A model generated the notes under the pieces. It was not told the origin of the DNA. It made no database searches and saw nothing but the letters and a program-made list of their open reading frames with translations. From assembly GCA_019747735.1 (NCBI GenBank), contig JAIEQL010000040.1, forward strand, positions 3,179 to 67,178: DNA of 64,000 nt, in the 5' to 3' direction. Shown piece after piece: positions 676 to 52,444 of the stretch (positions are counted from its first letter, which is position 1; each line of letters starts with the position of its first letter). Both the position numbers and the translations under genes were made by a program. This stretch comes from Chthoniobacterales bacterium (lineage in GTDB: Bacteria; Verrucomicrobiota; Verrucomicrobiia; Chthoniobacterales; UBA6821).

Positions 676-697
676 TATCCGTTCACGGGAACGGATA
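676..697 (+). terminator. Perfect 9-bp stem / 4-nt loop hairpin just after the dipeptidase stop (no U-tract)
   Basis: tatccgttc-acgg-gaacggata lies 12 nt after the TAG at 662..664. It is followed by agtaaag, not a T-run, so intrinsic-terminator status is doubtful. Confidence 0.3.
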
Positions 698-702
698 AGT
701 AA

Positions 703-836
703 AGAGTGAAGAGTAAAGGGTGAAGAGTATTTTGAGGTTGAAAATAAGATCAATGCTTTCAATTCATTCTTTTTTAAGAAAAAGGATCATAGAAAATTTT
801 GTTTTCACACTCTTCACCCTTCACCCTATACCCTTC
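703..836. repeat. Inverted pair of heptamer word arrays (agagtga/agggtga versus ctcttca/cccttca)
   Basis: The left arm has four 7-nt words (703..730). The right arm has four complementary 7-nt words (809..836). The perfect 12-bp core agggtgaagagt (717..728) pairs with actcttcaccct (809..820). Confidence 0.7.
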
Positions 837-904
837 ATAATCGTTCTGCTGAACGGTTACATCTTTTTGCTCCCCTTTTGCTTCCTTTTTGCTACCTTTA
901 AGGC

Positions 905-1210
905 ATGTCAACTTTAGTCATTAAATCAGTCCCCAAAGAGATTCATCAATTCTTAAAAGACTCAGCACGTGCTAATCGCCGTTCTTTGACGCAAGAAGTG
1001 ATTACACTCTTGGAGCAGCTTGTAACAAGCCTCAAAAAGGAAAAGAAGGTTCCTGTAAAAAGAAAATTGACTCCTGAAGAGATGAAGTTACTCACTTTTT
1101 CTGGGAGAAGAAAATTGGTGCCTGGTTATTTGGAATCTTATGCAGCAGGCGCTTTCGCTGGAGGGACAGATTCGTCGGTGATGATTTCTGAAGAGCGTGA
1201 TGCCCGATGA
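905..1210 (+). CDS. Ribbon-helix-helix (Arc/CopG/FitA-like) antitoxin
   Basis: N-terminus VIKSVPKEIHQFLKDSARANRRSLTQEVITLLEQ is typical of RHH antitoxins. A 4-nt ATGA overlap joins it to the downstream PIN gene. Confidence 0.6.
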   Translation: MSTLVIKSVPKEIHQFLKDSARANRRSLTQEVITLLEQLVTSLKKEKKVPVKRKLTPEEMKLLTFSGRRKLVPGYLESYAAGAFAGGTDSSVMISEERDAR

Positions 1211-1647
1211 AAACAGCTTATTATGATGCGGCATTTTTGTGTAAGCTGATTTTCCCTGAAGCAGGCTCAGAAAAAGTCGTTATTCATGCCAATCAAATGC
1301 ATCATCTCTTTTGTTCCATGCATGGGCGTGCAGAGTTTGTCGCGACCTGCCATCGAAAAATGAGAGAGGGATCTGCAACAAAACTTCAAGTTGAAGAAGC
1401 TATGCAGCAAATTCACCAAGATACTAAATTTGGATTTATGAAGTGGCTCCCCCTCACGGAAAAGCATCTTGCTCGTGTCGAGGTGGCCTTTCGTCATGCC
1501 CCTAAAGATCTTTTCTTAAGAGCCTCGGATGCCCTTCACTTGGCGGTTGCAGCAGAGCATGGTCTCAAAGAGATTTTTTCTAACGATCGACATCTGTTAA
1601 ATGCTGCATCGCTCTTTGGATTGAAGGGAAAAAATCTTTTGGCTTGA
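1207..1647 (+). CDS. vapC: PIN-domain ribonuclease toxin (VapC family)
   Basis: Acidic PIN residues sit in the expected contexts: YYDAAFL, RAEF, RASDALHLA, SNDRHL. It is translationally coupled to the upstream antitoxin. Confidence 0.7.
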   Translation: MKTAYYDAAFLCKLIFPEAGSEKVVIHANQMHHLFCSMHGRAEFVATCHRKMREGSATKLQVEEAMQQIHQDTKFGFMKWLPLTEKHLARVEVAFRHAPKDLFLRASDALHLAVAAEHGLKEIFSNDRHLLNAASLFGLKGKNLLA

Positions 1648-1650
1648 GTG

Positions 1651-1732
1651 ATGACTATCGGCATTTCCTTAACTTTTTTTAGCAGGCCTTACAGCCTATC
1701 GCCTACAGTCCATAGCCTATGACCATCGGCAT
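1651..1732 (+). repeat. Duplicated gene start (atgacYatcggcat x2) flanking a 54-nt insert ending in four AGCCTAT-like heptamers
   Basis: 1651..1664 atgactatcggcat and 1719..1732 atgaccatcggcat match 13/14. The insert ends agcctat cgcctac agtccat agcctat directly at ATG 1719. Confidence 0.8.
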
Positions 1733-2603
1733 CATGGGAGCCATCCCCCAAGAAGTAGAGTTATACCTTGCGCGCTCACTATTTGAGTTTTTCACTGGCT
1801 ATTTTTGTCTCTAGCTTCGTTGTCAGAGCTTACGTTATGTACGCATAGCGTCTCGCTCTTTCGCCTTGCTAGAAACAAAAATCTCAGCGTGAAAAAATCT
1901 CAAATATTAAACGCGCAAGGTATAATCAAGGAAGAGATGCTGATTAAGGAAACGATAGAGCTGGGGGGCGCTTTTTTTACGTTGGGGAGTTGTATGGTTC
2001 TGAGGTGGTGTTGGTCTTTTCACGTATTGGAAAAGTAGCTGCAGCAAGTGTGGCGACAACACTCTTCAATTTTTTTGAAATCGACTTTTTGCTTTTCACT
2101 GGTGTGGCTGGAGCCGTTCATCCTGAACTAAATATCGGTCACATTATGATTGGATCGAAACTCTATCAACATGACATTGATGCAGGTCCTCTCTTTCCAA
2201 AGTTTCACATACCTCTCACGGGACGTGATCACTTTGTAGCTCATGAAGAATTTTTAAAATGCGCAGAGAGCTGTATCAATGATTTTATCAAAGAGCTAGA
2301 ACATCACCTCGAGTCAGCAATAATAGCAGAGTTTTTTGCCGAGCCTCCCAAGCTCCTTCGCGGCACGATCGCCACAGGAGCCCCTTTTATCATGCTGTAG
2401 AAATGGAGGGAGCTGCTGTGGCTCAAGTTTGCCACGACTATGACAAACCATTTTTGATCATTAGAACCATCTCCTACAAAGCCGACCACACGGCCTCGGT
2501 CGATTTTCACAAGTTTATCAAAGTGATCTCCAATCCTTTTTCCAACGGCATTGTTCAAAAACTGTTGCCGGAGTTAATAAAAGTGATGAAGCTTTTGAAA
2601 TAA
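1719..2603 (+). pseudogene. mtnN: 5'-methylthioadenosine/S-adenosylhomocysteine nucleosidase (MtnN/Pfs), multiply disrupted
   Basis: MTIGIMGAIPQEVEL...IKEEMLIKETIELGG...SRIGKVAAAS...FTGVAGA...MEGAAVAQVCHDYDKPFLIIRTIS matches Pfs across three frames. It is broken by a 161-nt MITE insertion (1764..1924), a -1 frameshift in the G-run near 1984..1987, and a TAG at 2398 with about 17 aa missing. Confidence 0.8.
1762..1924 (+). mobile_element. MITE-like element, family B copy 1 (159 bp, perfect 11-bp TIR TACCTTGCGCG, TA target-site duplication)
   Basis: The element spans 1764..1922, with TA at 1762..1763 and 1923..1924. Removing the element plus one TA restores the in-frame Pfs sequence QEVEL-IKEEM. 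Confidence 0.85.
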
Positions 2604-2605
2604 TC

Positions 2606-2902
2606 ATGTTCCTTATTTTACTCACTTACAAAAAAACGATTGAAGAAATAGAAAAGCATTTAGTAGCTCATCGAGCCTTTTTAGACGAGGGCTATAAAAA
2701 TCGTCACTTTCTTTTTTCGGGACCATTCCATCCAAGAACAGGTGGAGTGATTACCTCTCCATTAAAAGATCGTGAGCAATTAGAGGCTGTTTTAAAGCAA
2801 GATCCTTTTTGGGCAAATGATCTTGCGGACTATCAGATCATGGAGTTTACCCCCACAAAATATCTGCCTCAACTTGCTCCAGTGATGGAAAGTCTTTTAT
2901 AG
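2606..2902 (+). CDS. YciI-family protein
   Basis: 98 aa. The pattern HRAFLDEGY...SGPF...GG...DPFW...EF.P is typical of YCII-related domains. Confidence 0.55.
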   Translation: MFLILLTYKKTIEEIEKHLVAHRAFLDEGYKNRHFLFSGPFHPRTGGVITSPLKDREQLEAVLKQDPFWANDLADYQIMEFTPTKYLPQLAPVMESLL

Positions 2903-2952
2903 TTTTGAAATTAAAGTTATTTCATGAATAACGAGGCCTTCGTCTTTTAAAA

Positions 2953-3414
2953 ATGGATTCACTGACCATCAACTCTATTAGCAATCTCCTTTTCAAATTT
3001 GCCAATAATTTTGACTTGAAAAAGTGGGATGAAATGGAGCGTTGCTTAGCCTCACAAGTCGATTGCGATTACACCAGCTTGCGTGGCAAAAAAGAGATCC
3101 TCACAGCCAAAGAGTATGTGCATCAGCGCAGATCAGCATTGGAGCCCCTTCAAATGCAGCATCTTTTTTCTAATTTAGAAATAGATCTTCTCGGCGAACA
3201 TCAGGCAGCCTGCCGCTGTTCCGCATTGATCTTACGGAAACGAGAAGAAAAATTTTTTAACACTCATGCGATTTACGAATTCACTTGCGTGCGCGAGCGA
3301 GGAGTGTGGCTGATTTCAGCGATCAAGCAAACGGTGCTTTGGAATGAGGGAGATACTGAGATTCATTCGGGAGTAGCAGCCTTACTTCTCCAGCCACTTC
3401 CTAACAGGAGTTAG
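2953..3414 (+). CDS. SnoaL-like / NTF2-family protein
   Basis: 153 aa. N-terminus FKFANNFDLKKWDEMERCLASQV.DYTSL resembles SnoaL_4/NTF2-like proteins. Confidence 0.4.
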   Translation: MDSLTINSISNLLFKFANNFDLKKWDEMERCLASQVDCDYTSLRGKKEILTAKEYVHQRRSALEPLQMQHLFSNLEIDLLGEHQAACRCSALILRKREEKFFNTHAIYEFTCVRERGVWLISAIKQTVLWNEGDTEIHSGVAALLLQPLPNRS

Positions 3415-4566
3415 CAAAAATTGTTCGATAGGAATACCTCCTTCGCCAACTAATAAATTTCTAAGTGGCTTGAAGCGTGTTCTAAAAATTTCCAGAGCTC
3501 TCGTTGTAGAGTGACTGCGTCCGCTTTTAACTTCGATGCCAACGATGGTCTTTCCTTTTTTTAATACAAAGTCGACCTCGTGATTCCCTTCGCGCCAATA
3601 TTGGACTTCTATGGTGGTCCCAAAAGTTTGATTGAGCAGATGAGCTCCAACAGCTGATTCTACAAGGCGCCCCCAATGTTCTCGGTTGCTGATAGCCTCT
3701 TCTATAGTGAGTTCAGTGCTTGCGGAGAGGAGTGCTGTGTTGAACACTTGAAGTTTAGGGCTAGAAGCTCGTTGGTGTATTTTCCCATGGGTATATTTTG
3801 CAAGGCCACCTACCATTCCTGCGCTTTGTAAAAGTTGTAAATAATGAGCAAGCGTTACGGTGTTCCCAGCGTCAGTAAGCTGGCCTAACATTTTTTGATA
3901 GGAAAGAATTTGTCCTGAATAATCACAGCTAAGCTGAAAAAGCCGACGCAGGAGACCTGGTTTATCAACACGAGTCATGAGCAAGATATCTCGTGAAATG
4001 CTTGTTTCTACCAGTGACTCCAGGATGTAATGACGCCAACGTTCTGGATTTTTGATGAGTGAAGCCGCACCTGGATAGGCCCCATAATAAATGAATTGCT
4101 TAAGATCCCAGTCAAAGGCTTTTTTTATTTCACTAAAAGACCAATGAGAAATGGGAATAAGTTCAAAACGACCAGCAAGGCTTTCGGTGAGACCTGATTG
4201 AATGAGTAGAGGAGACGAGCCAAGCAAAATAACATGGAGAGAACTTTTAGTATGAGTGTCCTGATCCCATAATTTTTTGACTAGTTCTGACCACTGATGG
4301 ATTTTTTGAATTTCATCTAAAACAAGGACCCCTTTTTTCTTTCCAGCTTTTAAATGTGCTTCTTCCCATTGCTGACGAAGCCATTCTTGTCCTTGTAGAG
4401 CCGGAGCATCCGCCGAAGCGTAATGAAAAGGGATATCTAATTTTTCAAGCAATTGTTGAATCAACGTTGTCTTGCCAACTTGCCGAGGTCCGGCCAGGAC
4501 TTGAATAAAACGACGAGGTTCTTCTAGTCGATCTATAAGAAAATCAAGGAGATACTGACGAATCAT
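3382..4566 (-). CDS. AAA+ ATPase with DUF4143-type C-terminal domain
   Basis: Walker A is GPRQVGKTT and Walker B is VLVLDEIQ. The C-terminal EVDFVL...GIEVKSG looks like a PD-(D/E)xK motif, typical of the AAA_14 + DUF4143 architecture. Confidence 0.75.
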   Translation of the reverse strand: MIRQYLLDFLIDRLEEPRRFIQVLAGPRQVGKTTLIQQLLEKLDIPFHYASADAPALQGQEWLRQQWEEAHLKAGKKKGVLVLDEIQKIHQWSELVKKLWDQDTHTKSSLHVILLGSSPLLIQSGLTESLAGRFELIPISHWSFSEIKKAFDWDLKQFIYYGAYPGAASLIKNPERWRHYILESLVETSISRDILLMTRVDKPGLLRRLFQLSCDYSGQILSYQKMLGQLTDAGNTVTLAHYLQLLQSAGMVGGLAKYTHGKIHQRASSPKLQVFNTALLSASTELTIEEAISNREHWGRLVESAVGAHLLNQTFGTTIEVQYWREGNHEVDFVLKKGKTIVGIEVKSGRSHSTTRALEIFRTRFKPLRNLLVGEGGIPIEQFLLTPVRKWLEK

Positions 4567-4618
4567 AAATTTACTCAGGATTGTGAGTAAATTTACTCAG
4601 GGCGTCGAGTTAAATTAC

Positions 4619-5701
4619 TCAATGTGTTGAGTGAGTTGATGAGGTGTCTTGCAGAAAGAAGGATGTGCTAGGAATAAATTTACTGCTTACTTCTTCGGCA
4701 TAAATCTCTCCCTGTTGGAGTGGTAATTTTTTGACAGGGGCTCCTTTTTTGAGATCACATTTTTTCAGATCAACCCAAAAGACGTTAGGACGCTCACTAT
4801 TTTCAAAAAAGTAGACATCGTTTTTTAAATCAGCAGCACTTCTCCAAATGGTCGCAGCAATGTTGGGATGGACTGGATCAGTCTCTTCCATCATTGGAAC
4901 AGAAACAGTGCGCATGATAGAAAAAACAACAGCAATAGCTTCTTCGGAATTGGCAGTTTTTTTTGCGTTATTTAAAAAGTAGCTCGCTCTTACAAAACGA
5001 TCCTCAGGATTAATTGTTCCTGGAAGAAATAGTCCTTTGAGGTTTTGCCAATAGGCATTCAGCGTCAATTGCTTTTCATAAGTTGGTTCATTGGTCATGA
5101 CATTGTAGGCCTTGTTATGGTGAACAATTAACTTTCCATCGACATATTCAAAGATGGCATTATCTCCCGTCTTATCAGCAATTGCTAAATGGACTGTTGG
5201 CTCAGCTTTATTGGGAAGTTTTTGGGCAACCATGTTGAAAGAATCTTTTCCAAAATCTTCAACGGCCTCTGCAACGGTTGCGTAATTGTCTAAGAAATAT
5301 TGAGCCCAGATTAAGATGGAGATATTTTTGCGATCAGCTTTTGGTTTTCCATAATCGGTAGTTGATAGATAGAGCAAGTTGGCGCAAAGCCCTTCCGAAT
5401 TGATACCATCAGTCGTTCCTATATTGTAGCCACTGGCGATGATGCTTCCATATTTTGAAGTCCAGATAAGGCTCTTGGGATCATTACTGTTGCCACTTCG
5501 TTTGATGCCTGCAGGAAAAGCCCAAAGATCTGTTTTAATATCCTCCATCCAATCCATCGTTCGTCCCATGGCCACCATTTGATCAAGCCCTGTATAGGTA
5601 ATTCTGCTACAAGCGTTACTCTGCCCAGAGATCAAGAGTAGGAGGCTCAAGCAGAAGAAGAAAATGAAGAGTTGTTTTTTGATGCAGGATGTTGGTTTCA
5701 T
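4619..5701 (-). CDS. Secreted Ntn hydrolase, choloylglycine hydrolase / linear amide C-N hydrolase family
   Basis: The signal peptide ends SNA|CSRITYTG, which would expose an N-terminal Cys nucleophile as in penicillin V acylase and bile salt hydrolase. Confidence 0.7.
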   Translation of the reverse strand: MKPTSCIKKQLFIFFFCLSLLLLISGQSNACSRITYTGLDQMVAMGRTMDWMEDIKTDLWAFPAGIKRSGNSNDPKSLIWTSKYGSIIASGYNIGTTDGINSEGLCANLLYLSTTDYGKPKADRKNISILIWAQYFLDNYATVAEAVEDFGKDSFNMVAQKLPNKAEPTVHLAIADKTGDNAIFEYVDGKLIVHHNKAYNVMTNEPTYEKQLTLNAYWQNLKGLFLPGTINPEDRFVRASYFLNNAKKTANSEEAIAVVFSIMRTVSVPMMEETDPVHPNIAATIWRSAADLKNDVYFFENSERPNVFWVDLKKCDLKKGAPVKKLPLQQGEIYAEEVSSKFIPSTSFFLQDTSSTHSTH

Positions 5702-5730
5702 AAGTGGTAGGTTTTTTGTAGGTTAAAAAA

Positions 5731-6786
5731 TTATTCTTTCCCAAGCGATGCCATATCGATGACAAAACGATAGTGTACATCGCCTTTGATCATCCGTTGG
5801 TAAGCAGTGTTGATTTCTTGAATAGGAATGAGTTCGATCTCTGCAGCAATGTTTTTTTCTCCACAAAAATCGAGCATCTCTTGAGTTTCCTTTATTCCAC
5901 CAATCATCGAGCCTGCAACGGTTTTACGACCATGAACGACATCGAATAAATCTAGTTCTAGAGCTTGGGAAGGAAGACCAACGGTGATTAGTTTTCCATC
6001 ACGTTTTAAAAGTGAGAGATAAGCTTCCAATTTATAAGAAGCAGAGATCGTACTCAAAATAAGATCAAAGCTATTGGCATGTTGGGCCATATCAGCTGGA
6101 TCTTTGGAAACAAGAATTCCTTCCGCTCCCAATTGAAGTGCATCTTGCTTTTTATGAGGGGAGGTGGTGATCACATAAGTCTTCGCTCCAAAAGCATGAG
6201 CAAATTTGACTCCCATATGACCTAGTCCTCCGAGGCCGACAATACCTACCTTCTGGCCTGGTCCCACATGCCAATGCCGCAAAGGAGAGTAAGTTGTGAT
6301 CCCTGCGCAGAGAAGGGGAGCTGTTGCTGCCAATGATAAATTTTCTGGAATGCGCAGCACAAAATCTTCTGTCGTTACAATGCTTTCGCAATAGCCCCCA
6401 TAGGTTGGAGTTTTTTTATCTTGTTCGGTGCTGTTATAGGTAAAGGAAGCTCCTTTCTCACAATATTGCTCTAGATTTTCTTGGCACGAGCTACAGCGAC
6501 GACAAGAATCTACGATCACTCCGACACCAACACGATCTCCTATTTTAAATTTACTCACACTAGAGCCGATCTCTTTTATATGCCCTACAATTTCATGACC
6601 TGGTACCAGCGGATAGACGGCCCCGCCCCATTCATTACGCGCTTGGTGAAGGTCGCTATGACAAACTCCGCAGTAGTCGATGGCAATGTCCACATCATAA
6701 GGTCCTAGAGCGCGACGGTCTAATACGTAAGGTTCCAGTGGTGTGGTGGCGTCGAGAGCAGCGTAGGCTTTGGTTTTGTTTTTCAT
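5731..6786 (-). CDS. Zn-dependent NAD(P) alcohol dehydrogenase (cinnamyl-ADH/YahK-like)
   Basis: Motifs GVCHSD, GHEIVG, CxxCxxCxxxxxxxC and GxGGLGH are all present. 351 aa. Confidence 0.9.
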   Translation of the reverse strand: MKNKTKAYAALDATTPLEPYVLDRRALGPYDVDIAIDYCGVCHSDLHQARNEWGGAVYPLVPGHEIVGHIKEIGSSVSKFKIGDRVGVGVIVDSCRRCSSCQENLEQYCEKGASFTYNSTEQDKKTPTYGGYCESIVTTEDFVLRIPENLSLAATAPLLCAGITTYSPLRHWHVGPGQKVGIVGLGGLGHMGVKFAHAFGAKTYVITTSPHKKQDALQLGAEGILVSKDPADMAQHANSFDLILSTISASYKLEAYLSLLKRDGKLITVGLPSQALELDLFDVVHGRKTVAGSMIGGIKETQEMLDFCGEKNIAAEIELIPIQEINTAYQRMIKGDVHYRFVIDMASLGKE

Positions 6787-9419: not shown

Positions 9420-9440
9420 TTAGAGTGGATTAAAGCTAAA

Positions 9441-9592
9441 AACGTGAATGAAAATAAAAAATTTTACGCAATATAATCTGGTTTAAACTGTTCGTTCTCA
9501 TGCCTCACTAACCGTGCAGGTTAGCCACGGCCTTATAACAACCAGTTTTAAATCAGCCTTCTTACGCAAACTTTCTCATTTTCATTCACGTT
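9441..9592. mobile_element. MITE-like nested palindrome, family C copy 1 (TIR AACGTGAATGAAAAT)
   Basis: Left end aacgtgaatgaaaat matches right end attttcattcacgtt. Inner inverted repeats are ctggtttaaactg/ccagttttaaatcag. The TIR is shared with 36012..36203. Confidence 0.7.
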
Positions 9593-9602
9593 ATAACTTT
9601 AT

Positions 9603-10070
9603 TTAACGTGGTCTAGTTCTTGGGAGTATGTGGAAGCCTTCTTTTTTGGCGAGGGCTGCTTGCTTTTGATCAAAGCTAATGAAGGTCTTAATTTTTAGGT
9701 GAAGTGCCGTAGCAATGTGGAGCATATCCATCGTGCGATGTCCCTGAGTGAAGGTATGCTTAGCGCTGAGCCGTTCTGCAAGGCTGTGCACATCGACCCA
9801 ATTGACAATAGGAATGACAAAAGTGCCATTAGCGAAATTTTCATCGAATAATGCCAGCATGGTATCTGCCACCCTTTTTGAAAATACTTGCGAACGATCG
9901 CTCGCGAATCGGAATGCTTGGAGGCGCACTGATTGGCGAAATTCAAAGACTACAAGGGAAGAGAGGTGGATAGAATTGTTGGCAGAAGTAATGAAAGATT
10001 CTGCTAGTTTGTTATTGTCCTGTTCTCGATAAAGAGCACACAAGAAAGAGGTGTCGGCAAAAAAACTCAT
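9603..10070 (-). CDS. vapC: PIN-domain toxin (VapC family)
   Basis: Start MSFFADTSFLCALY. The other acidic PIN positions are FEFRQS, TMDMLHIATA and SFDQKQ. The ATG overlaps the antitoxin stop (TAATG). Confidence 0.7.
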   Translation of the reverse strand: MSFFADTSFLCALYREQDNNKLAESFITSANNSIHLSSLVVFEFRQSVRLQAFRFASDRSQVFSKRVADTMLALFDENFANGTFVIPIVNWVDVHSLAERLSAKHTFTQGHRTMDMLHIATALHLKIKTFISFDQKQAALAKKEGFHILPRTRPR

Positions 10071-10366
10071 TACTCTTCTCCTAATTCCCAAGCTCTCATT
10101 TCTTCCACTTCTTTCATCGTAAAAGGTCGGCGGTTACCCCATATTTTTTTGCGTTGCGCGGCAAAATCAGGCATCTTAAATGGCTTCTTTTTTGTAGCAG
10201 GGGGAGGGGTAAGCTGAGCAAAAATAACTCCATGGCGCGTGATGTTAACGGGTTGTCCATTCTCAATCCAAGCGGAGACACGGCGAAAATTATTTCTTAA
10301 ATCAGCTACTGTGGCAGTTTCAATCGGTGCTTCTTGTTCTTTTATCATGATAGGGAAATCTATCAT
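10070..10366 (-). CDS. Phd/YefM-type antitoxin
   Basis: ATVADLRNNFRRVSAWIENGQPVNITRHGVIFAQL fits the Phd/YefM N-terminal fold pattern. It sits immediately upstream of the PIN gene. Confidence 0.6.
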   Translation of the reverse strand: MIDFPIMIKEQEAPIETATVADLRNNFRRVSAWIENGQPVNITRHGVIFAQLTPPPATKKKPFKMPDFAAQRKKIWGNRRPFTMKEVEEMRAWELGEE

Positions 10367-15214: not shown

Positions 15215-15289
15215 AGCATGTCCCAAAAGGCCTAAAATCTCGCACTGCAGCGTCGCCGTAATGCGCAATTTTAGTCTTTTCAAGACACC
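15212..15289 (+). repeat. MITE family A-related fragment (TA|GAGCAT end joined to the ...cgccgtaatgcgcaattttagtcttttcaagacacc module)
   Basis: It shares the GAGCATG terminus with family A. Its 3' 45 nt match 38590..38633. The TA of the upstream gene's TAG stop (15212..15214) is the junction. Confidence 0.65.
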
Positions 15290-15350
15290 TTCTTAAGAAC
15301 ACCTTGCTGAATAGTCGCTAGTTTCTTATCTTTGGCAGCAATCATTTTGT

Positions 15351-16229: not shown

Positions 16230-18014
16230 ATGGATGGGAATACACATAATCTAATGATAATTCCTTCTAAATCTCAGGTGGTTGCCGTTTTTGAAAAGAT
16301 AGCGCAATTGCTAGAATTGGAGGGAGAAAACCCTTTTAAAATCCGCGCTTATCTACGTGCCGCGCAAGCCCTGGAGGCCCTTTCTGAGCCGCTAGAAGAG
16401 CTTGTGAAGGAAGAGCGATTGGGTGAAGTTGATGGTATTGGTAAAGCCATTAAAGAAAAAATTACGGAACTCATGACTACAGGGCATTTGCCCTACTACG
16501 AAGAATTACGGAACCATTTTCCAGCAACGCTTTTTGAACTCTTCGAGCTGCAAGGATTGGGCGCCAAAAAAATTCGCATGCTTTACAAGGAGCTAAAGGT
16601 TGCTTCGATTGATGATCTTGAAAAGGCCTGCCAATCAGGCTCTGTTGCTCAACTAGCTGGTTTTGGTCCAAAATCAGCAGCTAACATCGAAAAAGCTATT
16701 GCCTTTTATCGCTGTCACACAGGGCTCTTTCGGCGTGATCAGGTGACGCTCTTAGCGGGAACTTTGTTGGATGATTTACGTGCTCATCCTCATGTGAGCG
16801 AGTGTCAGAGTGCAGGGAGTTTTCGTCGTGGCAAAGAAGCAATGGGCGATCTTGATCTTTTAGTTTCCTCGACAAAGCCAGAGGAGATAACACAATTTTT
16901 TATTCATCACCCACTTGTTGCTGAGATCCTCATGCAAGGCCCAACCAAATCGAGTGTGCGTTTAAAAAATGTAGACCGTCCTGATCAACAAGGCGGAATT
17001 CAATGCGATCTCCGTATTGTGCGTCCTGAAGAATTTCCTTTTGCACTCGTTTATTTTACTGGCAGCAAAGAACACAACATTCGCTTGCGCAGTCGTGCTC
17101 TTGAATATGGATGGTCTCTCAATGAATATGGTTTTACGCCACAAAGAGGAGCAGCCGCTGCACCCCTTATTCATGAGGAACGCGAGCTCTATCATGCTGT
17201 AGGATTGCAAGAGATTCCCCCCGAATTAAGAGAAGACCGTGGGGAAATTGCCGCTGCAGAAAAGGGACTCATTCCTCGTTTGATCGAGCTCGGCGATCTC
17301 AAGGGAACCTTTCATTGTCATACAACCGAGAGTGATGGGCAACATACGCTCCTGGAAATGGCTGCAGCTGCTCAGGAGTTAGGTTTATCCTATTTGGGTA
17401 TTGCCGATCATAGTAAGAGCTCTGTACAAGCCCATGGAATGAGCGAAGAGAGGTTGAGCAAGCAACTTCATGAAATTAAAAAACTTAATGAAAGCTTTGA
17501 AGACTTTCATCTTTTTGCCGGAGTGGAATGCGACATTCTAAAAGAGGGAACACTCGATTTTTCCAATGAGGTGCTTGCCTCGCTCGATTATGTGGTAGCC
17601 TCAGTCCACTCGTCTTTTACATTAGGAGAGGCTGCGATGACTAAGCGTCTCATCCGCGCTATGGAAAATCCCTATGTTACGATACTGGGTCATGTTACAG
17701 GACGTATTCTATTTTCACGAGAATCGTATCCTGTCAATGTTCCTGCGGTTCTCGATGCAGCAGCAGCCACAGGAACTATTATTGAACTTAATGCCTCTCC
17801 TTATCGACTTGATATGGACTGGCGTTGGTGGCTATTGGCGAAAGAAAAAGGAGTGCGCTGTGTCATTAACCCTGATGCTCACTCAACAGCAGGACTTCAT
17901 AATCTGCTTTTTGGAGTAACTATTGCCCGTAAAGGATGGCTCACAAAAAACGAGGTGATTAATACGCTTTCGGCTAAGGCTGTCCAAGAGGTACTAAAAA
18001 TGAAGAAAAAATAA
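16230..18014 (+). CDS. polX: Family X DNA polymerase with C-terminal PHP domain
   Basis: HhH motifs (GIGKAI, GFGPKSA), pol-beta nucleotidyltransferase motif GSFRRGKEAMGDLDLLV and a PHP domain (FHCHTTESDG...ADH). Confidence 0.85.
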   Translation: MDGNTHNLMIIPSKSQVVAVFEKIAQLLELEGENPFKIRAYLRAAQALEALSEPLEELVKEERLGEVDGIGKAIKEKITELMTTGHLPYYEELRNHFPATLFELFELQGLGAKKIRMLYKELKVASIDDLEKACQSGSVAQLAGFGPKSAANIEKAIAFYRCHTGLFRRDQVTLLAGTLLDDLRAHPHVSECQSAGSFRRGKEAMGDLDLLVSSTKPEEITQFFIHHPLVAEILMQGPTKSSVRLKNVDRPDQQGGIQCDLRIVRPEEFPFALVYFTGSKEHNIRLRSRALEYGWSLNEYGFTPQRGAAAAPLIHEERELYHAVGLQEIPPELREDRGEIAAAEKGLIPRLIELGDLKGTFHCHTTESDGQHTLLEMAAAAQELGLSYLGIADHSKSSVQAHGMSEERLSKQLHEIKKLNESFEDFHLFAGVECDILKEGTLDFSNEVLASLDYVVASVHSSFTLGEAAMTKRLIRAMENPYVTILGHVTGRILFSRESYPVNVPAVLDAAAATGTIIELNASPYRLDMDWRWWLLAKEKGVRCVINPDAHSTAGLHNLLFGVTIARKGWLTKNEVINTLSAKAVQEVLKMKKK

Positions 18015-18135: not shown

Positions 18136-18309
18136 TAGAGCATATTAAAAAATTCTGTAGCCGCTCATTGCGTCGTCGCTTCGGTGCTCGCTCCATCGAG
18201 TATTGGCTATACACTTCCTCGCTGTGTGGCTCAGCTCCTGGCACTGCATCGACTACAAAAATTTTTAATGATGCTCTAAAATGGCTATAGTTTTATTTAA
18301 AATGCTCTA
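18136..18309 (-). mobile_element. MITE-like element, family A copy 1 (GAGCAT...ATGCTC termini, TA flanks)
   Basis: About 170 bp with TA at both ends. It is near-identical, as reverse complement, to 32229..32402. The TA at 18308..18309 is part of the GH1 stop codon. Confidence 0.8.
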
Positions 18310-19635
18310 AGGTTCCGGATAAGCCTTAATAAACTTGCTGAACCAAATCCCTGCAGGAGTGATGTGGCGTTCGTGGGTTTTTTTGTCGTAGAAAAAAAGT
18401 CCAAACTGACCTTTCCATCCTTCCGTCCATTCGTAGTTATCCACCAGTGTCCATGGGAAGTAGCCTCGCACATCCACCCCATCATTTATAGCGCGTCGCA
18501 TCTGAGCAATATGATTACGGAAGAAAGCGATGGCTTTTTGGGCGCTTTGAGTGGCAATTCCATTTTCGGAAATCACAATGGGCTTGTGATAGCGGTCATT
18601 AACACTGCAAAGAACACGATAGAGTCCTTCAGGATTAATTTCCCACCCCATTTGGGTATAGAGAGAGCTCCGCTCTCCACCGCTACGAAGAAGAAGCTCA
18701 TGAATACTAGAGCTTTTGGAATAATAATAATTTACTCCAATGATGTCACAGGTATCAGCGACCATATCCAAGTGGTCATAGTTTTGGCGTTGATAGATGT
18801 TATAAATGAGCGCTGTGGGATCATGGGTAAAAGAACGCGTGCACTCTGGAAGAGAGTAGATTCCCATAACAATGGCATCAGGGCGCTCTTTGCGTAGGGT
18901 AGCAGCTGCATCGCGAAACATTGCTGCTGCGGTTTTCATAGCTTTTTTATAACTGAAAGGATGTAAGAGAAGTCCAGGCGGCCAATGTCCAGCGATCCAA
19001 CCAAGCTGCAAGGCACCATTGGGCTCGTTTTGGGGGACATAAATTTTTACATAAGGTGCCATGGCGTGGGCTACTCGTTGCACATGGGCATGCCAGGCAG
19101 CCTCAACGTCAGGATGGCAAAAATTGGAGTGCGCTTTATCGTGCGTTTTGTAAAGCCAATCGGGAAAAGTAAAATGCCAGAGGGTAACGATGGGTTCAAT
19201 TCCTGCGGCTTTGAGTTTGCGTGCCATCGTGACATATTGGGCAAGAGCTTGGTGGTTGATGATGCCCGGGCGTGGCTCAATCCGCGCCCACTCTACACCA
19301 AAACGGAAATGATTGACGCCAAGCTGCTGTAGGGCTTGGAGGTCTCGATCAAATTCACTCCACGAAAAGACAGCCTCATCGCCACGTAATGGAACAACTC
19401 CTTCTTCGGCATAGCGATCCCAGTCTGTTTTGAAATACCAAGGTGAATCTTTGGGATAGCCGCGATCTTCATTTTGAAAAGGAGCTGTGGAGACACCCCA
19501 CCAAAATGTTTGTTTGGGAACTGGCTTCAAAGCAGTTCCCTTAACAGAGCAATGATAAGCGGAAGGTGGAGTAACGCAGCTACTGAAACAAACTGTAATA
19601 AGAGCAAGAGATAGCCAAAATATTGTACGCTTCAT
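18307..19635 (-). CDS. Secreted glycoside hydrolase family 1 (beta-glucosidase-like), paralogue A
   Basis: Signal peptide present. Acid/base motif is QNEPN and nucleophile motif is ISENG. Also RFGVEWARIEP and DNYEW. Confidence 0.85.
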   Translation of the reverse strand: MKRTIFWLSLALITVCFSSCVTPPSAYHCSVKGTALKPVPKQTFWWGVSTAPFQNEDRGYPKDSPWYFKTDWDRYAEEGVVPLRGDEAVFSWSEFDRDLQALQQLGVNHFRFGVEWARIEPRPGIINHQALAQYVTMARKLKAAGIEPIVTLWHFTFPDWLYKTHDKAHSNFCHPDVEAAWHAHVQRVAHAMAPYVKIYVPQNEPNGALQLGWIAGHWPPGLLLHPFSYKKAMKTAAAMFRDAAATLRKERPDAIVMGIYSLPECTRSFTHDPTALIYNIYQRQNYDHLDMVADTCDIIGVNYYYSKSSSIHELLLRSGGERSSLYTQMGWEINPEGLYRVLCSVNDRYHKPIVISENGIATQSAQKAIAFFRNHIAQMRRAINDGVDVRGYFPWTLVDNYEWTEGWKGQFGLFFYDKKTHERHITPAGIWFSKFIKAYPEP

Positions 19636-23788: not shown

Positions 23789-23928
23789 CTTCTGTCCTAA
23801 ATTCTACTGATGAGGCGAAGAGCTGTGTCGCGCCAGTGCTCGCGTCGTCGAGTATGTTCATATACACTCCTCCGCTGTGCGCTGTCGCTCCTTGCTCTTT
23901 ATCTCCATCAGCGAATTTTGAACAGAAG
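23789..23928. repeat. 140-bp palindromic element related to MITE family A (TIR CTTCTGTYCWAAATTC..CTGATGRAG)
   Basis: It starts 1 nt after the oppA-like stop. The central gtgctcgc..tcgagtat..catatacac.tcctc.gctgtg resembles the family A centre. Confidence 0.65.
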
Positions 23929-26796: not shown

Positions 26797-27056
26797 TTAA
26801 TCATAGACCTCTCGACGATGGGCCACTTTCAAAACTAATACTAGCAACTCATGATCCTTGATTTTGCAAATCAACCGATAGTTGCTCACGCGATATCTCC
26901 AACAACGGCTAAACTCCCCAATCAAAGGTTTTCCAAAACGACGTGGATCTTCAGCTGTATTGATCCTTGTTTTCAAATAAGCAGCGATCCTTGCTTTACT
27001 TGTGTGATCAAGCTTATGAAATTGTTTTTGTGCCGATTCAGAGAAATCAACTTTTC
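26797..27056 (-). pseudogene. RelE/ParE-family toxin with a start-proximal frameshift
   Basis: The 85-codon open frame KVDFSESAQKQFHKLD...RRFGKPL...WRYRVSNYRLICKI...LVLVLKVAHRREVYD is RelE-like. The only ATG (27054..27056) is out of frame by one A in the run atgAAAAg. Confidence 0.55.
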
Positions 27057-27230
27057 ATTTCACAAGCCGTGTTCCTTTATTAAATCATCAAGGCTTATGC
27101 ACTTTCCTGGATTCGCTAATACTTTTATCGCATCAGCAAGATCTTCAGCATCTTCTAGTGCTTCCCTCAACATACTAAGCTCTTGTTCAGAAAGCTTCGG
27201 TATTTCTTCTACTATTTCAAGTGCACTCAT
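27045..27230 (-). CDS. Putative antitoxin partner of the RelE-like gene (61 aa)
   Basis: ATG at 27230 is preceded by agggagagc. The product is acidic and helical (MSALEIVEEIPKLSEQELSMLREALEDAEDLADAIK...). It overlaps the toxin start. It is not listed in the supplied ORF track. Confidence 0.5.
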
Positions 27231-27309
27231 GCTCTCCCTCTTACTCTAAGTTATTTCGTTAGTCAAGAAATTTGCTACCTCAGTAGATACAACACAGAAA
27301 ACTCCACTC

Positions 27310-32228: not shown

Positions 32229-32402
32229 TAGAGCATTTTAAATAAAACTACAGCCATTTTAGAGCATCATGAAAAATTTTTGTAGTCGATGCAGTGCCAG
32301 GAGCTGAGGCGCACATCGAGGGAGTGTATAGCCAATACTCGATGGAGCGAGCACCGAAGCGACGACGCAATGAGCGGCTACAGAATTTTTTAATATGCTC
32401 TA
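32229..32402 (+). mobile_element. MITE-like element, family A copy 2
   Basis: TA|GAGCATTTTAAAT...ATTTTTTAATATGCTC|TA. It differs from the reverse complement of 18136..18309 at only about 10 positions. Confidence 0.8.
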
Positions 32403-35966: not shown

Positions 35967-36011
35967 GGTATTAGTGAAAATGTTGTTCGAATAGGGACAA
36001 AAATGAATTAT

Positions 36012-36203
36012 CCTTAAAACGTGAATGGGCATGAATAATATTTTGTAAGGAGTTGGTTCCAATAGGTTTTTTCAACCGGTGCGGCGTACCTTAAGCCATA
36101 GCTTGCTGTGGCGCTCCTTTTTATACATAAGCTTGCGGTTGGAAAAAATTATTGGGGCCAAGTATATTGCAAAAGATTATCATGATCCGTTCACGTTTTT
36201 AGG
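36012..36203. mobile_element. MITE-like nested palindrome, family C copy 2
   Basis: CCTTAAAACGTGAATGGGCATGAATAAT pairs with ATTATCATGATCCGTTCACGTTTTTAGG. Inner repeats are gttggttccaatagg / ccaataatttt..ccaacc. It ends 2 nt from the stop of the convergent SUMF1 gene. Confidence 0.7.
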
Positions 36204-36204
36204 A

Positions 36205-38457
36205 TTATCGGAATCTCCAAAAAAGATTTAGAAGACCATCTATGGTAATACCAAAACCAGCCATAGCATTCTCAATATCTTTTCCGTAATAAGCACAAAC
36301 AAGGCCTCCTACAATTAATCCGCCAGGGATAAGAATATCAAGAGGAGGTGGCAATAGTAGAGCAGCTTCAGCAGTAGCTTCGATAGCAGCTTCGATAGCA
36401 GGGGTAGCAGCAGCTCCTTCCTCCACGACGGCTTCTTCTAGTAAGGAAGCTGTGGTTGGCGTTGCCCTCACACCAATCCACGTTTTTAGGTATCGTTGTA
36501 TAGCCTCCGGAATGATAAGACCAAAAGTCCAATTTAAGATATTCATACTGGCAGTACTTGCATTCTCAGCAAAATAGGATGGTGACAAATCGTTCCAAGT
36601 TTGCTTAAGGCCATCCCAAAAACGAGCACCTAGTCTTAGCACTCCATACTCTACCTTATGAGCAGGTGATTCTGGTGGTGGTGGAACATTGTAGACCAAA
36701 CGGAATCCAATGGTATTGGTTTTGGTACCTATAGGAATAATCCTTCGCATCGAAGTAATACCTATTTCTCCGGTAATAGGATTAATATTACCATCAAGAC
36801 TCTCGCCACTGTCACTACTCTTTATCTCTGATTTCCACGAACCACCTCGCAGAGCAAAGTCCCATCTCGGCTTAACACTACCTTCAATCTCAATGGTAGC
36901 ATTACGAAACAAAGTCCATTGATCCACGTTCCCAGACATATCATAGAGACCAAAAGGGCTTTTCGTTTTTTTAAAAAATCCTACAGGAGTTATGTAAGGT
37001 GCATTACTCTGAGTATAATGACCATCTAAACAAAAGTTAGCATCATTATTGTTTCTTGTTGCCAGTTCTATACTATTTGTTGGTAGCTCGTCAGTTCCTG
37101 TTCCATACTTATAATAACATTGATTAGTACCTGGAAAACCATCCCAATCTACTGTTGCTTTTTGATAGTATGCAGCCTTATACCACTGGCTTTCTGTGGG
37201 AAGAGACCATCGTGCACCAACATTGGCTATCACAGTGATAGAGATAGCTCTTCCTGTTTTAATTGTTGTTACAGTTCCTTCACTAAGAGTCCCATTAAAA
37301 CTCTTGATAGGAGGATTAGTAATAGTCTTATAAATATCATTAGTTGTATAAATAATATCAAAAGCTCCCGTTTGTGTTGTCCCAGGCCCCTCTTCTCCAA
37401 GTGGTTGTCCATTTTCTATCCAGTTACAAAAAGAAGCAGCTCGGACTCCTGAAATATAGGTAATTGGAAACTTTTCTCGTCCTGGTATCACTTCATAATC
37501 ATAAGGATTGGTCTCTCCAATGCGAGTGATACAGGCAATATTACTATCAGACCCCATGTTGGTATCATACAGTTCATAACGATCATTATTGGTAGCCACT
37601 GCTTTTAAAAAAGCACAGTACTGCTGGGCAGTAACATCAGTAACGCCGATCTGAAAAACATTAGATACAGAACCCAAACCACCCCACTGGAGCTGGTCAT
37701 GTTGATTGCCAGGATCATCAATAGTCGCTAATTCAATTTTAATTGGTTTTGTATTTTTTATTATGACTGGTAGAGCATCATTTCCAGATGTAGATGAGTT
37801 ATCAGGTGAATCCATCAGAAGTGGACTTCCTCCTAGTAAAGGAATGATAGCTCTATTGTTTTCTGGACTTTCTATTGTTGATAAAGAATTGCCTATCGAA
37901 AAAGGAATACCCTTATTTTCGATCATAGCATCACTGCTATCCACACAATCTATTACAAAGTTGGCTCCACTACTCCCTAAGCCAAGCATTGGATCAACAT
38001 TACTTAATGCATTATTACTACTTAGGCGATAGTGAGCATTGGGTGTTGGTAAGAATTGAAAAGCAAGAGCATCACCTCCATTAGTTATGGAAGTTAGGTC
38101 ATAAACACCAGTTTCTGTGTTAGCATCTCCTCCTCCATTTTCCTTCCAATTACAAAACCGAGCTTGCGATATTTTATTAACATAAGTAATAGCAGCAGTG
38201 GTACCTCCTAAAATAGAATAATGATAGGCCCCAGGATGTCCATATCGCTTGATCATTGGAAGGGCATATTGCATTTCAGGATCGTAAAGATGATAAAGAT
38301 CAGTAGTGGCTACCTTGTTAAGAAAATGACAATAGTCATCAAGGGTCACGAGACTTGTAACATATTTAATATCTTCTCGTGCAGAACCAACCTGGTGAAA
38401 GGCCATTAGGAAAAAACTGCAGCAAAAAAAGAATTTTTTTAAAAAAGAAGAAACCAT
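36205..38457 (-). CDS. SUMF1/FGE (formylglycine-generating-enzyme-like) repeat protein with signal peptide and C-terminal membrane anchor
   Basis: Two N-terminal FGE half-domains (FLNKVA...ARFCNW and FLKAVA...ASFCNW) plus the C-terminal signature LYDMSGNVDQW...LRGGSW. The hydrophobic tail is ILIPGGLIVGGLVCAYYG. Confidence 0.75.
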   Translation of the reverse strand: MVSSFLKKFFFCCSFFLMAFHQVGSAREDIKYVTSLVTLDDYCHFLNKVATTDLYHLYDPEMQYALPMIKRYGHPGAYHYSILGGTTAAITYVNKISQARFCNWKENGGGDANTETGVYDLTSITNGGDALAFQFLPTPNAHYRLSSNNALSNVDPMLGLGSSGANFVIDCVDSSDAMIENKGIPFSIGNSLSTIESPENNRAIIPLLGGSPLLMDSPDNSSTSGNDALPVIIKNTKPIKIELATIDDPGNQHDQLQWGGLGSVSNVFQIGVTDVTAQQYCAFLKAVATNNDRYELYDTNMGSDSNIACITRIGETNPYDYEVIPGREKFPITYISGVRAASFCNWIENGQPLGEEGPGTTQTGAFDIIYTTNDIYKTITNPPIKSFNGTLSEGTVTTIKTGRAISITVIANVGARWSLPTESQWYKAAYYQKATVDWDGFPGTNQCYYKYGTGTDELPTNSIELATRNNNDANFCLDGHYTQSNAPYITPVGFFKKTKSPFGLYDMSGNVDQWTLFRNATIEIEGSVKPRWDFALRGGSWKSEIKSSDSGESLDGNINPITGEIGITSMRRIIPIGTKTNTIGFRLVYNVPPPPESPAHKVEYGVLRLGARFWDGLKQTWNDLSPSYFAENASTASMNILNWTFGLIIPEAIQRYLKTWIGVRATPTTASLLEEAVVEEGAAATPAIEAAIEATAEAALLLPPPLDILIPGGLIVGGLVCAYYGKDIENAMAGFGITIDGLLNLFWRFR

Positions 38458-38463
38458 ATCTCT

Positions 38464-38633
38464 TAGAGCATGTTAAATAAAACCACAGCCATTTTAGGGC
38501 ATCATTAAAAATTTTTGTAGTCGATGCAGTGCCAGGAGCTGAGGCGTACAGCGAGGGAGTGTATAGCCAATACTCGATGGAGCGAGCACTGGAGCGACGC
38601 CGTAATGCGCAATTTTAGTCTTTTCAAGACACC
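38464..38633 (+). mobile_element. MITE-like element, family A copy 3 (chimeric 3' end)
   Basis: The first 125 nt or so are collinear with copy 2. The 3' end is replaced by the module also seen at 15245..15289. It begins 6 nt upstream of the SUMF1 gene ATG. Confidence 0.75.
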
Positions 38634-40913: not shown

Positions 40914-40972
40914 GAAAGGGTGGAGAGTTAACTGACAACTGAGAACCGACAACAGGCAACTTCATTATTGAT

Positions 40973-43722: not shown

Positions 43723-43762
43723 AGTTTTGTCCAAGAATGATAAAAAACAGAAGAACTATTCA

Positions 43763-44004
43763 CAGGGATGGAAGCGATAGAAGGGATGGCAGAAAAAAAT
43801 GAATAGCCACAAAAGAACACAAAGAAACGCAAAGATGCCAAACAAAAAAATGTCAGCGGTGTCAGCGGAATAATTAGCTAACTTTAAAAAAATAATGTGC
43901 CTTTTTCTTTGAGTTCCTTTGAGTTCTTTTGTGGCTATTTCTTACATTGATTTTGGACAGAAATGACTCAAACTTCTTTATCCCTTCTATCGCTTCCATC
44001 TCTG
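43763..44004. repeat. 242-bp doubly nested palindrome of GGATGGAAGC and CACAAAG word arrays
   Basis: Outer arms are cagggatggaagcgatagaagggat / atcccttctatcgcttccatctctg. Middle arms are aatagccacaaaagaacacaaagaaacgcaaag / ctttgagttcctttgagttcttttgtggctatt. Confidence 0.8.
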
Positions 44005-44026
44005 TTAGTTTCTTTTTTTTAAAAAT

Positions 44027-44926: not shown

Positions 44927-44970
44927 GCGTTATTGAATGAATCAACAACTTTTACCTTCAACTTATTTTC

Positions 44971-45918
44971 ATGACTCCACAACCTCTCGATTTTGAACAA
45001 CCGTTACTTGAGTTAGAGAAACGCCTCGCAGAGCTCATTTCACGGACTCCTGAAGATACAAAACGCATTGCCAGCATTCAGGAAAAAATCGTCCTTATGC
45101 GTGAAGATCTCTACAAAAATTTAACACCATGGCAGCGCGTCCTCATCGCGCGCCATCCTGCACGTCCTTATGCTCTCGATTATGTAGAGCGCTGCTTTAG
45201 CGATTTTGTCGAGCTCCATGGAGATCGCTACTATGGCGATGACAAGGCGATGCCTGCAGGCATTGCGCGTCTAGGAAAATACCACTGCGTCGTGATTGCT
45301 CAGCAAAAGGGACGTGATGTGAAAGAAAATGTATTGCGCAATTTTGGGTGTGCTCATCCAGAGGGATACCGCAAGGCACTTCGGTTAATGCGTCTGGCAG
45401 AAAAATTTTCGCTTCCTGTCATCACTCTGATTGATACTCCAGGTGCCTTCCCGGGGATTGGGGCGGAAGAACGCCACATTGCAGAAGCCATTGCTGTGAA
45501 TTTGCGAGAGATGATGATTTTAAAAACACCGATTGTTTCTATTGTGATTGGGGAAGGGGGCTCAGGTGGCGCTTTGGGAATAGGGGTTGCGGATCGCCTC
45601 TTGATGATGGAAAACGCCTACTACTCCGTGATTAGTCCGGAGGGATGTGCTGCCATTCTTTGGAAACATCGCAAACATGCTCCAGAAGCAGCGGCTGCGC
45701 TCAAGTTAACAGCTCATGATATGAAACAGCTTGAGCTCATTGATGGTATCATTGAAGAACCAATGGGAGGAGCTCATCACGATCTTAATAAAACAGCTGC
45801 TGCTCTCAAGAGTGCCATAGAATCAGCTCTCGAGGAACTTACAAACACGAAACTCCCAGCTCTATTAGAAGAGCGCTATGCTAAGTTTCGCAAGATGGGT
45901 GTTTTTTCGGAAGAATGA
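44971..45918 (+). CDS. accA: Acetyl-CoA carboxylase carboxyltransferase subunit alpha
   Basis: RHPARPY, DTPGAFPG, EERHIAEAIA and GEGGSGGALG. Confidence 0.9.
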   Translation: MTPQPLDFEQPLLELEKRLAELISRTPEDTKRIASIQEKIVLMREDLYKNLTPWQRVLIARHPARPYALDYVERCFSDFVELHGDRYYGDDKAMPAGIARLGKYHCVVIAQQKGRDVKENVLRNFGCAHPEGYRKALRLMRLAEKFSLPVITLIDTPGAFPGIGAEERHIAEAIAVNLREMMILKTPIVSIVIGEGGSGGALGIGVADRLLMMENAYYSVISPEGCAAILWKHRKHAPEAAAALKLTAHDMKQLELIDGIIEEPMGGAHHDLNKTAAALKSAIESALEELTNTKLPALLEERYAKFRKMGVFSEE

Positions 45919-51085: not shown

Positions 51086-51216
51086 TGGGCATTGTACAAC
51101 AATATCCATTAAACTGAGTTGAAAGTGTGCCACTGTGAAGTTAGCGGCATCCCTGCTGGTTCTCGCCTTCGCGAGAACGACATAGGAATCCAGCTATGGA
51201 ACTAAGCTTTGCTTAA

Positions 51217-51336
51217 AAAAGTTGAAGTTGAAGCAACAGATTTTCTGAGTAGCTTAATTTTGTTTTTCAATTTAGAGATCTTTATTTGCTGCGAAGCAGC
51301 CACTAATTAACTTAAACTTTCAACTTAAACTTTTTT
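51217..51336. repeat. Inverted pair of GTTGAA/GTTTAA word arrays abutting the yebC start
   Basis: aaaagttgaagttgaag (51217..51233) pairs imperfectly with cttaaactttcaacttaaactttttt (51311..51336). An internal gctgc-gaa-gcagc hairpin is present. The yebC ATG is at 51339. Confidence 0.65.
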
Positions 51337-52281: not shown

Positions 52282-52444
52282 TATATTCAAATTACTTAGA
52301 AAGTACATGAAAGAACGCAGAGATTTTTAGAAAAGGCAAGGCCGAAGAGCGAGCGCTATATCTTATAACGGGAGTAATGAGAACGCGGTCTTTTCCTGAA
52401 AAGATCAAGTCAATTTTGTGTGATTTCTAAGTAATTTGACTATA
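52282..52444 (-). mobile_element. MITE-like element, family B copy 3 (reverse orientation, different TIR)
   Basis: Arms are tatattcaaattacttagaaa / tttctaagtaatttgactata. The reverse complement of the interior carries CCCGTTAT..ATAGCGCTCGCTCTTCGGCCTTGC..AAAAATCTCTGCG. Confidence 0.7.

Follow-up and report, generated by a model that had tools for sequence, protein, structure and literature searches.

A lineage-specific 68-bp gain at the start of a decaying pfs gene in a Chthoniobacterales genome, and its bearing on start-adjacent word arrays

The cyanobacterial STRR are tandem heptamers, which the word arrays described here resemble, and small dispersed repeats are reportedly the subject of work by Elhai et al. 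from 2008. The DNA analyzed is a 64-kb stretch (hereafter the window) from a metagenome-assembled genome of an uncultured soil/freshwater member of the Chthoniobacterales (Verrucomicrobiota) with a GC content of 43%. Heptameric SSRs with the words GGGAATC and GGGGAYT are tandem and enriched in the intergenic DNA of Xanthomonas and Nostoc, with their largest fraction 0-50 bp upstream of ORFs, the G-rich strand in antisense and some of the arrays in inverted pairs (PMC4692102). Arrays in the window likewise exceed shuffled sequence 3-8 times and have a G-poor coding strand beside the ATGs, but they occur in Verrucomicrobiota, comprise many different words and lack G-quadruplex-type runs. One of these arrays lies within a 54-nt insert at the start of a pfs gene, flanked by two copies of a 14-nt sequence. 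As in target-site duplication by IS and MITE elements, a direct target repeat flanks the insert and relatives have an empty site, and the same gene holds a textbook case, a MITE flanked by TA. Unlike such elements, the 54 nt lack terminal inverted repeats and occur only once in the sequences searched, and none of the elements observed in the window makes a duplication of 14 bp. The casposase of A. boonei produces a 15-bp duplication and integrates short oligonucleotide duplexes in vitro (PMC5137440). The 14-bp duplication at pfs falls within 14-15 bp, whereas a casposon carries inverted ends and genes for Cas1 and PolB; the window was found to contain neither gene, no Cas1 being among its ORFs, the insert has no inverted ends, and no casposon came to light in this MAG or the relatives. 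The likeness to a casposase is offered only as a lead from the literature. Filler DNA at repaired double-strand breaks is a further parallel, the pfs insert being a short, unique piece that bears no mark of an element and sits in a gene free of selection; filler DNA or templated insertions are not generally known to leave clean 14-bp duplications. The window also contains a PolX polymerase gene (16230-18014), which is circumstantial for a break-repair reading.

The pfs locus follows a VapBC module, consisting of an RHH antitoxin gene (PF22513) and a PIN toxin gene (PF01850) that overlap by 4 nt (Table 1). A second PIN-domain toxin gene (9603-10366, minus strand) with a small upstream partner ORF was found elsewhere, and the window thus holds at least two VapBC-like modules. 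Reconstruction of pfs revealed full-length homology with PF01048 nucleosidases (E=1.6e-95), yet an intact ORF with the catalytic motif of Pfs/MtnN (PF01048) was not found. The lesions comprise a 159-nt palindromic MITE, a 1-nt deletion (frameshift) within 1964-1980 and the deletion of approximately 20 codons near 2392-2397, and the active site is altered from the conserved TGD to TGA and from ISD to ISY. These lesions were identical in an independent assembly (L102), which reproduced window positions 1895-5902 exactly. As reconstructed, pfs is a multiply broken pseudogene in the window lineage. In related contigs, a SnoaL gene directly follows vapC and pfs is missing (L092), DNA other than pfs lies downstream of vapC (L091 and L093), or the pfs copy is split into two ORFs (L007). 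Loss of pfs is under way across this clade, where the gene appears dispensable and, being in decay, tolerated the insertion scar. The first-pass annotation had suggested that the insertion regenerated an intact start codon; since pfs is a pseudogene, multiply broken here, this carries no functional weight.

Table 1. Features of the vapC-pfs locus, its orthologous junctions and the accA pair (window coordinates).
Feature	Coordinates	Strand	Remarks
vapB-type antitoxin, FitA-like RHH	905..1210	+	Pfam PF22513; overlaps vapC by 4 nt
vapC toxin, PIN domain	1207..1647	+	Pfam PF01850; NCBI MBX9743255, VapC family toxin; TGA 1645-1647
Upstream copy of pfs start, ATGACTATCGGCAT	1651..1664	+	3 nt (GTG) past vapC TGA 1645-1647
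23-codon ORF opened by upstream copy	1651..1722	+	TGA overlaps second ATG (ATGA); read from sequence
Lineage-specific spacer, 54 nt, G-poor, unique, no terminal inverted repeats	1665..1718	+	Absent from L094, L008 and L007
Heptamer array AGCCTAT CGCCTAC AGTCCAT AGCCT+AT	1693..1720	+	Last two bases are the AT of ATG
Downstream copy, ATGACCATCGGCAT, true pfs start	1719..1732	+	N-termini of orthologues align with it
pfs/mtnN (MTA/SAH nucleosidase) pseudogene	1719..2603	+	Reconstruction against homologues
Palindromic MITE in pfs, inverted ends TACCTTGCGCGC / GCGCAAGGTA	1764..1922	.	TA duplication 1762-1763 and 1923-1924
Pair upstream of accA, not a duplication	44937..44983	+	44937-44949 / 44971-44983
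L094 junction			TAG aat ATGAGAATCGGAATTATGGGAGCG; pfs ATG 3 nt after vapC stop
L008 junction			TAA aaa ATGAAAATTGGAATCATGGGAGCA; pfs ATG 3 nt after vapC stop
L007 junction			TAA gcaaagctt ATGAAAATTGGTATTATGGGTGCG; pfs ATG 9 nt after vapC stop

The two copies of the pfs start are identical at 13 of 14 positions, the sole mismatch being a T/C difference at a synonymous third-codon position, and both encode MTIGI. Translated from the second copy, the N-terminus MTIGIMGAIPQEV lines up with MKIGIMGAIPQEV in the orthologues, which identifies that copy as the true start. Similarity between the copies extends into neither flank, and thus the repeat is exactly 14 nt long. The duplicated start had been annotated at 1651-1664 and 1719-1732, with an interval of 54 nt ending in four heptamers, and both descriptions proved exact, the fourth unit taking its last two bases, AT, from the start codon. 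The window has 10 direct pairs of 14-mers that differ at one position at most and lie within 15-150 nt, compared with 2.3 +/- 1.6 for block shuffles, and the pfs pair was the only complex, start-associated one among them, the others being low-complexity or tandem. Scanning upstream of 58 window starts for a repeat of the 14 nt that open the gene, with 12 or more matching positions, gave one case against 0.02 expected. Chance does not account for the pfs start pair. The same structure was present in seven independent assemblies, including five Logan assemblies 100% identical to the window over positions 1-1786 and an ENA assembly from another project (L006) that differs by one SNP in 858 nt; this reproducibility indicates that the duplication is not an assembly artefact. 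The SNP (window 1700, L006 796, C>A) falls inside the heptamer array and turns the second heptamer into AGCCTAC, nearer to the consensus. The 23-codon ORF opened by the upstream copy has an estimated probability of approximately 0.1 of arising by chance, and the overlap of its stop codon with the pfs ATG could preserve translational coupling, to a gene that is dead anyway.

Relatives were found via contigs carrying VapC or Pfs homologues, and three of them (L094, L008, and L007) keep the vapC-pfs junction. A Pfs profile search of genome contigs gave L011 and L012 as the near relatives among the matches listed, while a metagenome scan with VapC recovered L094 and L008 again and nothing further. 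All three junctions lack the spacer, leaving an alignment gap of 62-68 nt. The VapC of L094 is 81% identical to that of the window and belongs to the same clade, whereas those of L007 and L008 (66-70%) belong to the other; empty sites in three relatives spanning both VapC clades indicate that the filled state is derived. The upstream copy lies at the ancestral 3-nt distance from the stop codon, as in L008 and L094, and the downstream copy is contiguous with the remaining, conserved pfs sequence. In addition, an ACY codon common to both copies is lineage-specific, the relatives having AAA or AGA at that position, and no orthologue matches either copy at more than 12 of 14 positions, against 13 between the copies themselves. 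Comparison of these junctions shows that the ancestral order was vapC stop, 3 nt and pfs ATG, and that the window lineage gained 68 bp, made up of the unique 54 nt and a repeat of the 14 nt with which pfs opens. The proposal that an insertion had duplicated about 14 nt of target at pfs, for which empty sites in relatives were the natural check, is borne out by these three orthologous sites with the ATG 3-9 nt after the vapC stop.

The insert itself matched nothing else in the sequences searched. By blastn-short, no second copy was present in the 64-kb window or the fetched loci; Smith-Waterman comparison with approximately 165 kb of window and relatives scored no better than shuffled inserts (P=0.65), and exact 19-mer scans found none in JGI metagenomes or viral contigs. 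A match of 22/25 to positions 38317-38341 (minus strand), which falls within coding sequence and ends at the junction, was taken as chance. The ends of the insert, TTCCTTAAC... and ...CATAGCCT, are not complementary, and neither terminal inverted repeats nor other element ends were recognized. RNA folding of 1630-1760 was unremarkable (z=0.45), Rfam covariance models gave no match at E<=1 over 1600-1760, including any SAM/SAH riboswitch upstream of pfs, and promoter and terminator scans found no such site within the insert. Simple tandem duplication or slippage was rejected, the spacer resembling neither of the 54-nt stretches that flank it. The heptamer array was detected by TRF with period 14, 2.1 copies and a score of 39, corresponding to approximately four units with 62% identity at period 7 and 71% at period 14; with at least three tandem units, an intergenic position and over-representation against shuffles, it ranks as a heptameric intergenic SSR. 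A 9-mer of the insert, CCTTAACTT, occurs three times in the window (1667, 12791, and 47361), always on the plus strand and in leaders, 24-62 nt upstream of plus-strand genes, which may be chance.

A single, lineage-specific insertion at the first codons of pfs, with duplication of its target, is on balance the probable origin of the 68 bp, if only narrowly. An integration-type enzyme or a staggered break would have produced two nicks 14 nt apart on opposite strands, and the gaps to the left and right of a short captured DNA fragment would have been filled in, which gives the 14-bp direct repeat. The heptamers would then probably in part have arisen in place by slippage, since the start codon supplies the AT of the last unit. 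A spacer interior consisting of a decayed tandem array of the 14-mer was tried and rejected, a 14-mer concatemer fitting no better than shuffles (P ~0.3-0.4), and this result was counted in favor of a single insertion. Against insertion stands that no donor, terminal inverted repeats or second copy came to light in the window, the approximately 165 kb searched with the relatives, or the metagenome and viral scans. Pfam analysis of 52 window ORFs revealed no transposase, integrase, Cas1 or reverse-transcriptase family, and none of six further window ORFs, judged by precomputed matches or NCBI names, was a transposase, integrase, Cas1 or reverse transcriptase. The AGCTT directly 5' of the ATG in L007 resembles the AGCCT before the second copy and, given this, the boundaries of the event may differ from those of a simple target duplication. 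From the alignments, the insertion footprint is genuine and one-off, and the mechanism proposed for it rests on the anatomy of one case.

The resemblance to L007 is also the starting point of a different account, rather unlikely in our judgement, in which a template switch during replication and growth of the array in place would have sufficed, no integration enzyme being needed. The AGCCT before the second ATG would be the ancestral pre-start spacer, AGCCT plus AT would have been amplified by slippage, and a copy-choice error would have re-copied the first 14 nt upstream and added approximately 26 nt of filler. The L007 junction AGCTTAT matches the array unit AGCCTAT at 6/7 positions, or at 4/5 outside the fixed AT (approximately P=0.016), and the final array unit spans the ATG. 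The sole between-sample SNP falls in the array, an array upstream of a rhodanese gene likewise matches a seed heptamer in an array-less relative (L101), and an indel in the accA spacer is bounded by CTTCAACTT words, a prediction of slippage. However, target duplication predicts the spacing of exactly 3 nt between the stop and the upstream copy, which equals that in L008 and L094, while under a template switch it would be a coincidence; for the 26-nt filler, neither the window nor the relatives offered a template, and more steps are required.

A broader suggestion of the first-pass annotation was that insertions of this kind, if general, would explain the word arrays beside start codons throughout the window, with a weaker second case upstream of accA. 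The accA pair matches at only 10/13 positions (11/14 in the start scan), and three start pairs at 11/14 or better were observed against approximately one expected, which is chance level. In L100, whose AccA is 94% identical, the spacer begins GCATTGTTGCAGGCAACAAC, and the window sequence ATGAATCAACAAC corresponds to the loop and 3' arm (CAGGCAACAAC in L100) of a small conserved hairpin after the stop codon. The supposed upstream copy is that 3' arm, and L100 refutes the duplication. The window sequence TTTTACCTTCAACTTAT occurs verbatim in the 160-nt, array-bearing spacer of L100, indicating that the window spacer is a shortened version, and one indel in it has the word-bounded ends that slippage predicts. 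The search for start duplications near other genes gave no further case at 12/14 or better, leaving pfs alone among 111 starts (58 in the window and 53 in relatives), and none of the other complex 12-mer repeats in a start-agnostic list linked a start to an intergenic copy. The generalization therefore fails: by these scans the pfs event is isolated and is not the general route of word arrays to start codons.

Arrays as such are abundant in the window. Those of period 5-16 numbered 39 against 12.3 in shuffles, and those scoring at least 39 numbered 19 against 2.4; 18 of the 39 fall in intergenic DNA, which makes up 10.8% of the window. The 5' leaders are G-poor, with 13% G at positions -20 to -1 of the window gene starts compared to 22% overall, and SD-like motifs were found at 5 of 59 starts; initiation of translation is probably largely independent of Shine-Dalgarno pairing. 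In the typA-yebC spacer, an array adjoins the yebC ATG in the window (51215-51336), L095 (11852-12002), and L100 (7780-7822), with differing words of CAACTT and CTACCAAC types, and in two of these genomes an arm further upstream complements the one nearest the start (94% in the window and 84% in L095). By this comparison, the position and pairing of the hairpin are kept while its words change, and the arrays predate the split between these genomes. Arrays of AGTRAAG were found at non-orthologous intergenic sites in the window (690-845), L100 (721-802 and 3592-3736), and L012 (11961-11988), usually as inverted pairs around unrelated loops, and are on this evidence a dispersed STRR-like family of Verrucomicrobiota present in at least three genomes. 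The UPF0176/rhodanese gene (minus strand) truly begins with ATG 40913-40911 rather than TTG 40952, and its 59-nt spacer (40914-40972, minus strand) carries GTTGCCT GTTGTCG GTTCTCA GTTGTCA GTTAACT, a GTTGTCA-like array. The array-less spacer aacgcgctGTTCTCTatg of L101 contains GTTCTCT (L101 4258-4272), which suggests amplification in place of a local seed word. Ahead of the LysM gene, the spacer measures 304 nt in the window (43723-44026), with three interleaved inverted array pairs, 180 nt in L100 (651-830), with AGTRAAG arrays, and 41 nt in L101 (8937-8977), with none, which indicates independent gains of arrays at one site. Duplications flanking other arrays were sought by orthologous comparison, and the spacers were too diverged to align.

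It is improbable, then, that arrays in general were carried in by small insertions duplicating about 14 nt, of which pfs would be the still-legible footprint. Such a model fits the pfs site, and it could appeal to the dispersal of AGTRAAG over non-orthologous sites in several genomes and to the LysM spacer, short and array-less in L101 and longer with different arrays in L100 and the window; as spacers evolve too fast for non-coding duplications to stay visible, the absence of evidence elsewhere is weak. Against it are the single duplication in 111 gene starts, the refuted accA case, the typA-yebC arrays that keep their place in three genomes with differing words, array words that match local seeds in relatives (GTTCTCT in L101 and AGCTTAT in L007), and a pfs insert that belongs to no dispersed family. 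New arrays lacking duplications at their flanks have in part been seen already. The annotated route by which words arrive at starts does not hold for the other arrays, which are older, dispersed, or match local seeds. The word arrays are, as far as the comparison of spacers goes, a separate clade-wide feature of G-poor, SD-less leaders and intergenic hairpins, and turn over as words are locally amplified and lost. A stronger version, in which a so far undescribed insertion process of Chthoniobacterales with a casposase-like stagger of approximately 14 bp installs G-poor array leaders and the duplications elsewhere have decayed, is very doubtful. The pfs locus offers a clean, polarized short insertion with a long (14-bp) target duplication and empty sites from relatives, and yet its chief value is negative, in that start-adjacent word arrays are left unexplained by such insertions; the more interesting subject is the fast-turnover, STRR-like arrays and array hairpins across this clade of Verrucomicrobiota, in leaders that are G-poor and SD-less.

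Direct repeats of approximately 14 nt are typical of att cores, and the 14-mer could be read as attL and attR of a site-specifically integrated element of which all but 54 nt was later deleted, the T/C difference between the copies reflecting an attP-derived copy. Such an origin is very improbable: no integrase or cargo lies nearby, the 5' end of protein genes is not a usual integration target, and the lineage-specific ACY in both copies argues for a local origin. Least credible of all is that the similarity is fortuitous, or that the filled state is ancestral and the spacer was lost in the relatives by recombination between the repeats, for although chance would give approximately two such 14-mer pairs in 64 kb and direct repeats promote deletion, a pair that hits the ancestral start position as well as the true start is expected at approximately 0.02 or less, three relatives in two clades without the spacer call for several independent losses, and the 13/14 identity of the copies implies a recent origin.

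Further repeats and hairpin elements were observed in the window. The MITE within pfs is inserted at GAG-TTA|ATC, and the orthologues have the empty sequence GAG-TTA-ATC; every short-read contig breaks at this MITE, indicating that it is multicopy. Weak relatives of it were found at 52315-52359 of the window and at 10951-11042 of L012. A second MITE family of approximately 175 nt, with the ends TAGAGCAT...ATGCTCTA, TA flanks and copies 91-97% identical, is present at 18136-18311 (minus strand), 32229-32402 (plus), and 38462-38610 (plus), with fragments at 15242-15293 and 23827-23898, and thus occupies at least five intergenic regions of the window. Both families duplicate TA, not 14 bp. A 22-nt direct repeat at 4567-4618 (CTGAGTAAATTTAC / ..AT, minus strand) adjoins the start codon of an ATPase gene; its reading as an insertion was rejected, as a hairpin of the same words lies at the orthologous place in L008 (5350-5420). 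In an ORF without Pfam match (26851-27249), the first 12 nt after the ATG recur twice inside, at +109 and +133 (26852-26997). Finally, intergenic palindromes at 9420-9602 and 35967-36204 have common ends of the AAAACGTGAATG ... TTCACGTT type and may represent a third family of hairpin elements.
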